DNA of 64,000 bases, from assembly GCF_003790525.1 (NCBI RefSeq), contig NZ_CP033636.1. One strand, 5' to 3'. The notes below the pieces were generated by a model. It was not told where the DNA came from. It did not search any database and saw nothing but the letters and a program-made list of their open reading frames with translations. Below are positions 29,503 to 30,322 of the stretch, in pieces. The translations under genes were made by a program, and so were the position numbers. Source of the stretch: Escherichia coli (GTDB lineage Bacteria; Pseudomonadota; Gammaproteobacteria; Enterobacterales; Enterobacteriaceae). Each line of letters starts with the position of its first letter. The first letter of the stretch is position 1.

Positions 29503-30322
29503 GGCACTGTTGCAAATAGTCGGTGGTGATAAACTTATCATCCCCTTTTGCTGATGGAGCTGCACATGAACCCATTCAAAGGCCGGCATTTTCAGCGTGA
29601 CATCATTCTGTGGGCCGTACGCTGGTACTGCAAATACGGCATCAGTTACCGTGAGCTGCAGGAGATGCTGGCTGAACGCGGAGTGAATGTCGATCACTCC
29701 ACGATTTACCGCTGGGTTCAGCGTTATGCGCCTGAAATGGAAAAACGGCTGCGCTGGTACTGGCGTAACCCTTCCGATCTTTGCCCGTGGCACATGGATG
29801 AAACCTACGTGAAGGTCAATGGCCGCTGGGCGTATCTGTACCGGGCCGTCGACAGCCGGGGCCGCACTGTCGATTTTTATCTCTCCTCCCGTCGTAACAG
29901 CAAAGCTGCATACCGGTTTCTGGGTAAAATCCTCAACAACGTGAAGAAGTGGCAGATCCCACGATTCATCAACACGGATAAAGCGCCCGCCTATGGTCGC
30001 GCGCTTGCTCTGCTCAAACGCGAAGGCCGGTGCCCGTCTGACGTTGAACACCGACAGATTAAGTACCGGAACAACGTGATTGAATGCGATCATGGCAAAC
30101 TGAAACGGATAATCAACGCCACGCTGGGATTTAAATCCATGAAGACGGCTTACGCCACCATCAAAGGTATTGAGGTGATGCGTGCACTACGCAAAGGCCA
30201 GGCCTCAGCATTTTATTATGGTGATCCCCTGGGCGAAATGCGCCTGGTAAGCAGAGTTTTTGAAATGTAAGGCCTTTGAATAAGACAAAAGGCTGCCTCA
30301 TCGCTAACTTTGCAACAGTGCC
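29503..30322 (+). mobile_element. IS26 copy 3 (820 bp), G184N transposase variant
   Basis: IRs at 29503-29516 and 30309-30322; same orientation as copies 1 and 2; no TSD. Confidence 0.95.
29566..30270 (+). CDS. tnp26: IS26 transposase with G184N substitution (KRIINATLGF)
   Basis: Codons ATA ATC AAC GCC ACG read directly; copies 1 and 2 have GGC (Gly) at this position. Confidence 0.9.
   Translation: MNPFKGRHFQRDIILWAVRWYCKYGISYRELQEMLAERGVNVDHSTIYRWVQRYAPEMEKRLRWYWRNPSDLCPWHMDETYVKVNGRWAYLYRAVDSRGRTVDFYLSSRRNSKAAYRFLGKILNNVKKWQIPRFINTDKAPAYGRALALLKREGRCPSDVEHRQIKYRNNVIECDHGKLKRIINATLGFKSMKTAYATIKGIEVMRALRKGQASAFYYGDPLGEMRLVSRVFEM

Follow-up and report, generated by a model that had tools for sequence, protein, structure and literature searches.

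The IS26 copy termed here copy D is, judging by its sequence and at a probability that we put at about 90%, an intact IS26-v1, which ranks second in frequency among the natural alleles of this element; it lies within the window (by which we mean the whole 64,000-nucleotide stretch of Escherichia coli contig NZ_CP033636.1 that was analysed). It is chiefly IS26 that assembles the resistance gene clusters of Gram-negative pathogens, and an allele of higher activity could speed both the fusion of plasmids with chromosomes and the amplification of genes. Compared over the full 820 bp with the canonical copy B of the same window, copy D differs only at IS positions 459, 613 and 614 (99.63% identity). 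The two are identical over the initial 458 bp, a stretch that takes in the left terminal inverted repeat (TIR) and the beginning of tnp26, and again over the final 206 bp; the GG>AA change at positions 613–614 is the one that produces G184N. This three-base signature relative to canonical IS26 matches the published definition of IS26-v1 as an element 3 nucleotides different from IS26, with 2 of these changes producing G184N within the Tnp26 catalytic domain (PMC9412624), and it is on this match that the assignment is founded. ‘Canonical’ denotes here copy B and the IS26 of the comparison record L002, used as the reference in place of the ISfinder/X00011 entry, where the status of copy B follows from its identity to the dominant allele and protein (WP_001067855.1) and from statements in the literature. 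The name IS26-v1, formerly IS26*, is said to go back to work by Pong, Harmer, Ataide and Hall in 2019 and to the 2021 annotation guide of Harmer, Pong and Hall.

In all sequence features tested, namely the TIRs, the three differences and an intact 234-amino acid DDE transposase, copy D agrees with IS26-v1 (Table 1). Its product, annotated as WP_001067858.1 in a public twin record, scores 278.2 bits against the IS6 family model NCBIfam NF033587 (cutoff 125) and matches Pfam DDE_Tnp_IS240 (PF13610) over residues 75–212 (E = 7.5e-49). The residues D78, D138 and E173, named as catalytic in Tnp26 (PMC8477213), are invariant in the alignment of relatives (A2), as is K180. Unlike copy D, canonical IS26 (X00011; Tnp26 WP_001067855.1; here copy B) has Gly184 and CCG at codon 132, while the mechanism of the two is the same.

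Table 1 Positions of copy D, its parts and flanks, and the other IS26-family elements of the window
Feature	Position	Strand	Details
IS26 copy A, Gly184 but V171M	10848..11667	+	IS position 574 G>A (window 11421); product WP_086525284.1
IS26 copy B, canonical (Gly184, Val171), reference allele	17483..18302	+	Product WP_001067855.1; identical to L002 IS26
IS1006 (element C), 819 bp, IS26-family relative	23548..24366	+	75.6% identity to IS26; annotated IS1006-family transposase WP_001067784.1
Left flank of copy D: 5'-truncated resolvase gene of TnAs3-like transposon, cut by the IS	29090..29502	-	ORF 29090..29575(-) runs into the IS
Copy D, probable IS26-v1, complete 820-bp element (‘copy 3’ of the original prediction)	29503..30322	+	Perfect 14-bp TIRs; 3 bases different from copy B
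Left TIR of copy D, GGCACTGTTGCAAA	29503..29516	+	
tnp26 CDS of copy D, Tnp26-G184N, 234 amino acids + stop	29566..30270	+	ATG at 29566; DDE = D78, D138, E173
Third marker base of IS26-v1, G>A at IS position 459	29961..29961	+	Silent, Pro132 CCG>CCA
Codon 184 of copy D, AAC = Asn	30115..30117	+	Canonical IS26: GGC = Gly
Right TIR of copy D	30309..30322	-	
Right flank of copy D: first 246 nt of IncHI2 backbone HNH-endonuclease gene	30323..30568	-	Cut at ...GGGTA/AATCTTCC

The original prediction, made from the letters of the window, had been that codon 184 reads AAC (Asn) in the third IS26 copy and GGC (Gly) in the first and second. This is what we observe (30115–30117, 11460–11462 and 18095–18097, respectively), and the claim stands, the wild-type Tnp26 carrying Gly rather than Asn at residue 184 (PMC8477213). 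Its numbering was sound in so far as copy D is the third IS26, yet it overlooked the IS1006 at 23548–24366, which makes copy D the fourth element of the IS26 family; similarly, Gly184 had been read correctly in the first copy, but the further difference by which that copy departs from the wild type, V171M, was missed. It also passed over how atypical of the family Gly184 is. The finding on codon 184 is correct yet already known, the allele having been described in 2019, and it adds annotation detail rather than new biology. Perhaps more useful, although all minor, are the V171M allele, the IS1006 on an enterobacterial plasmid, the switching of alleles at a fixed site and the unusual character of Gly184, each of which is treated below.

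Nine occurrences of the 14-bp terminal repeat were counted in the window, against none in shuffled controls. Its copies bound four complete elements, all in the plus orientation (A, B and D of 820 bp and C of 819 bp), and leave one orphan repeat at 8916–8929. This orphan, an IS26-type GGCACTGTTGCAAA followed by AATGTGGAGG (window 8906–8929, minus strand), lies between ISKpn19 and qnrS1, and no IS26-like sequence is attached to it. Copy A differs from copy B by its single substitution at position 574, and the resulting V171M sits two residues before the catalytic E173. The V171M allele is rare, occurring in only 93 PLSDB plasmids compared with 4,142 for G184N, and our literature search found no mention of V171M in IS26. 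Element C, IS1006, is like IS26 in having the same 14-bp TIRs, a 234-amino acid transposase and both cointegrate routes (PMC7885326), and unlike it in nucleotide sequence and in the Arg that occupies the position equivalent to 184; in the targeted reaction, IS1006 and IS26 do not work together (PMC7885326). Described mainly from Acinetobacter, IS1006 is complete here inside an enterobacterial IncHI2 resistance region. The three IS26 products (WP_001067858.1, WP_001067855.1 and WP_086525284.1) share the product name ‘IS6-like element IS26 family transposase’, and automated annotation gives v1, V171M and canonical copies this one label, leaving them separable only by protein accession.

Over its first 31.7 kb, the window is collinear with pNDM33-1 (NZ_MN915011), an IncHI2 plasmid, the differences being 2 single-nucleotide polymorphisms and a 15-bp deletion: the bases TGCCCTCGGTGGCCA of the pNDM33-1 TnAs3 tnpA are missing from the window at 28247, which is an in-frame change that shortens the open reading frame from 988 to 983 amino acids. 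The region runs from tet(A)/tetR through ISKpn19, qnrS1 and IS26-A to a truncated intI1 and the genes arr-2, cmlA5, blaOXA-10, aadA1 and dfrA14, which are followed by IS26-B; beyond this lie remnants of blaTEM and tet(A), then floR, IS1006, IS5075, the TnAs3 tnpA, a truncated tnpR and IS26-D, after which the IncHI2 backbone begins with the truncated HNH-endonuclease gene, hipBA and the ter genes. Lying between the TnAs3 tnpR and the IncHI2 backbone, copy D forms the right-hand edge of the multiresistance region. On its left, the TnAs3 tnpA is directly upstream of the truncated resolvase gene (twin record); on its right, only the 246-nt 5' part of the HNH gene is kept, and the remaining part of this gene is absent from the window. 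The gene is intact in the IncHI2 plasmid pM160133_p1 (L004), which is without the insertion and in whose backbone ...CAGCGGGTA directly adjoins AATCTTCCCGCC....

We found no 8-bp target-site duplication at any of the four elements, the flanks of copy D being GGCGAAGC and AATCTTCC, nor any matching pair, direct or reverse-complement, among the flanks of all four that would betray a transposon insertion or an inversion. A missing target-site duplication is usual for IS26 in resistance regions and irrelevant to the identity of the element. It does imply that the present flanks derive from later events rather than from a simple insertion, and those of copy D would have arisen through IS26-mediated or homologous events. 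Additionally, the window contains an 874-bp perfect inverted repeat (3351–4224 and 18869–19742) formed by the complete tet(A) and the tet(A) remnant next to copy B, through which the intervening 14.6 kb might become inverted.

How frequent the AAC (G184N) allele is was assessed by exact matches to an 80-base query centred on codon 184. By this measure it is present in 4,142 of 72,556 PLSDB plasmids, and among the complete E. coli genomes, 5,828 records contain this part of IS26, 2,226 of them with at least one AAC copy and 5,255 with at least one GGC copy. The IS26-v1 variant is common. A published survey of plasmids from Klebsiella, Escherichia and Salmonella counted 6,266 IS26 and 1,385 IS26-v1 transposases, often on the same replicon, and traced the earliest sighting of IS26-v1 to an isolate of 1990 (PMC11137137). 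One GenBank record (H146) labels the identical stretch ‘IS15DI transposase’; our literature search for an equivalence of IS15DI and IS26-v1 gave no paper. Copy D together with both of its flanks is also already in GenBank, just as the allele is in thousands of public plasmids: at 100% identity the element and both flanks occur in four plasmids, pNDM33-1 (NZ_MN915011), CP076648, MN915010 and CP104628, which have the same IncHI2 resistance region as the window.

Only one further plasmid, pHNAH212872 (NZ_CP104630), retains both flanks of copy D, bringing such plasmids to five. Its IS26 is like copy D in flanks, AAC codon and protein, and unlike it in having G at IS position 459, that is, the AAC codon without the silent change. 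This mixed allele may be the IS26-v3 of the literature. The right-hand junction of copy D, between IS26 and the backbone, is more widespread, being common to 50 plasmids, 34 with AAC and 16 with the two mismatches that denote GGC. These records do not represent separate lineages: of the 16 with GGC, 13 belong to an NZ_CP149xxx accession series from Salmonella, for the most part labelled ‘Pig, single cell’. We inspected two of the 16, and both proved to carry a fully canonical IS26 at the identical junction with other DNA to its left, namely intI1 and a resolvase gene in pNDM-M121 and aac(3)-IVa in a Korean Salmonella plasmid. From the junction variants and pHNAH212872 it follows that one and the same site holds different alleles in different plasmids and that mixed alleles exist. 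Such switching is consistent with homologous exchange between copies, or with the gene conversion that has been noted for the targeted conservative reaction (PMC7885326). We had considered the 34 to 16 split as a test of relative activity and dropped it, since records that are not independent lineages cannot rank the copies either way.

In a sister plasmid from Klebsiella oxytoca (NZ_CP107041; L006), the integron segment (arr-2, cmlA5, blaOXA-10, aadA1 and dfrA14) is arrayed in tandem at 31483–41785, with no fewer than three units of 6,427 bp, each headed by a canonical IS26 with identical flanks. These units are the product of a recent IS26-type amplification without involvement of a v1 copy, the one recent IS26-mediated event that we traced in a sister plasmid.

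The original prediction went on to propose that copy D may be the most active driver of rearrangement in the region, on the grounds that G184N is a natural variant with enhanced cointegrate formation. These grounds agree with the literature, in which G184N is credited with enhanced cointegration by papers citing Pong et al. 2019 (PMC9412624, PMC8477213, PMC11137137 and PMC12540391). Tnp26 is reported to act preferentially in cis (PMC8477213 and PMC7885326), which makes a copy-specific effect plausible, and an IS26-v1 copy on another IncHI2 plasmid has repeatedly formed plasmid–chromosome cointegrates in experiments (PMC9019673). That copy D is the most active driver is a reasonable hypothesis, but the sequence lends it no support: copy D has no target-site duplication, canonical IS26 occupies the junction in 16 of 50 plasmids and the amplification in CP107041 is canonical. 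The variant label alone does not tell which copy has been active, and activity in situ is a matter of expression and context as well.

To the alternative that rearrangement is the work of all IS26 copies and of homologous recombination between them, with the allele of copy D a swappable passenger rather than the main driver, we give slightly less than even odds. It accords with the occurrence of both AAC and GGC at one and the same junction, in the latter case with canonical elements and different left-hand neighbours in the two plasmids inspected, with the mixed allele between the two flanks of copy D in pHNAH212872, with the tandem units of CP107041 headed by canonical IS26, and with the lack of a target-site duplication at every copy in the window, as well as with the gene conversion noted in the targeted conservative reaction (PMC7885326). 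Copy B, moreover, is directly downstream of the cassette array and in the same orientation, and read-through from the array could conceivably raise its expression. Against this stand the cointegrates repeatedly formed by IS26-v1 on the other IncHI2 plasmid (PMC9019673) and the combination of higher G184N activity and cis action of Tnp26, both reported in the literature, while the junction counts are confounded by shared ancestry, most conspicuously in the NZ_CP149xxx series.

It seems somewhat unlikely that copy D instead inserted as v1 and was the founder IS26 at the backbone site, with the canonical IS26 found there in other plasmids being a later replacement. AAC is the majority allele at the junction (34 of 50) and is found there in hosts from E. 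coli, Salmonella, Klebsiella and E. fergusonii, but neither a target-site duplication nor left-hand backbone survives to date the insertion, and the counts, coming from records that are not independent lineages, give no direction of replacement. Very improbable is an assembly or sequencing artefact, such as reads of an IS26-v1 elsewhere in the genome collapsed onto the repeat: IS26 copies are near-identical 820-bp repeats that short-read assemblers often mix, and junction alleles do differ between plasmids, but the three linked variant bases form a known haplotype, the identical element recurs with both unique flanks at 100% identity in four independent records, the exact AAC 80-mer is present in 4,142 PLSDB plasmids, and the other two IS26 copies of the window keep distinct alleles, which argues against collapse.

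Taking copy D as an IS26-v1, we turn to the residue that sets its transposase apart. Searching 1.84 billion cluster representatives yielded 150 relatives (P0001–P0150), and column 184 holds Arg or Lys in 54 of the 71 that are below 95% identity and cover the region; counted by distinct local motifs, Arg or Lys accounts for 35 of 50, Gly for 2 and Asn for 4. Going by this alignment, Gly184 is unusual in the IS6/IS26 family, where Arg or Lys mostly takes its place. Against NF033587, the Asn form scores 2.6 bits higher than the Gly form (278.2 versus 275.6 bits). In an AlphaFold2 model (25 sequences; monomer, without DNA; mean pLDDT of 91.7), residue 184 is the last of the alpha-helix 170–184, which bears the catalytic E173 and the conserved K180, and a loop comes next. 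A sequence search for a solved structure of a relative found none; a fold search placed the ISCth4 transposase (6xg8, in complex with its ends) closest and also matched retroviral integrases. The authors of PMC8477213 point out that the ISCth4 loop following the E-helix makes contact with the terminal repeat, and they suggest, as a hypothesis, that G184N improves end binding.

According to the literature, any IS26 moves solely via cointegrates, by copy-in to a new target, making an 8-bp duplication, or by a second, targeted conservative route next to another IS26, and Tnp26 binds preferentially in cis, at the ends of the element that encodes it. Tnp26-G184N is reported, in papers citing the 2019 work, to form cointegrates at a higher frequency than the wild type. 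The mechanism that we propose for this would run as follows. The loop after residue 184 probably corresponds to the region of ISCth4 that contacts the transposon end; canonical IS26 would be short of the polar or basic side chain found at this position in most relatives, and Asn184 may in part supply what Gly cannot, a polar contact with DNA or improved capping of the helix, leading to stronger end binding or synapsis. We regard this restoration as the likeliest mechanism, on account of the modelled position at the helix end, the likeness to the ISCth4 loop and the prevalence of Arg or Lys in the family.

A wider reading, which we consider unlikely, would make Gly184 an attenuated departure from the Arg/Lys with which the family caps the catalytic helix at its C-terminal end, and G184N a partial return to it. 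At a fixed plasmid site, alleles would moreover be swapped between IS26 and IS26-v1 when the targeted conservative reaction involves branch migration or gene conversion, and mixed alleles like that of pHNAH212872 would be left behind. If Gly184 is indeed attenuated, G184R or G184K would be even more active than G184N; if alleles are swapped in this way, the level of activity would spread between resident copies. Among the relatives, the near-identical P0020 has Asp at position 184, a possible single-step intermediate between GGC and AAC.
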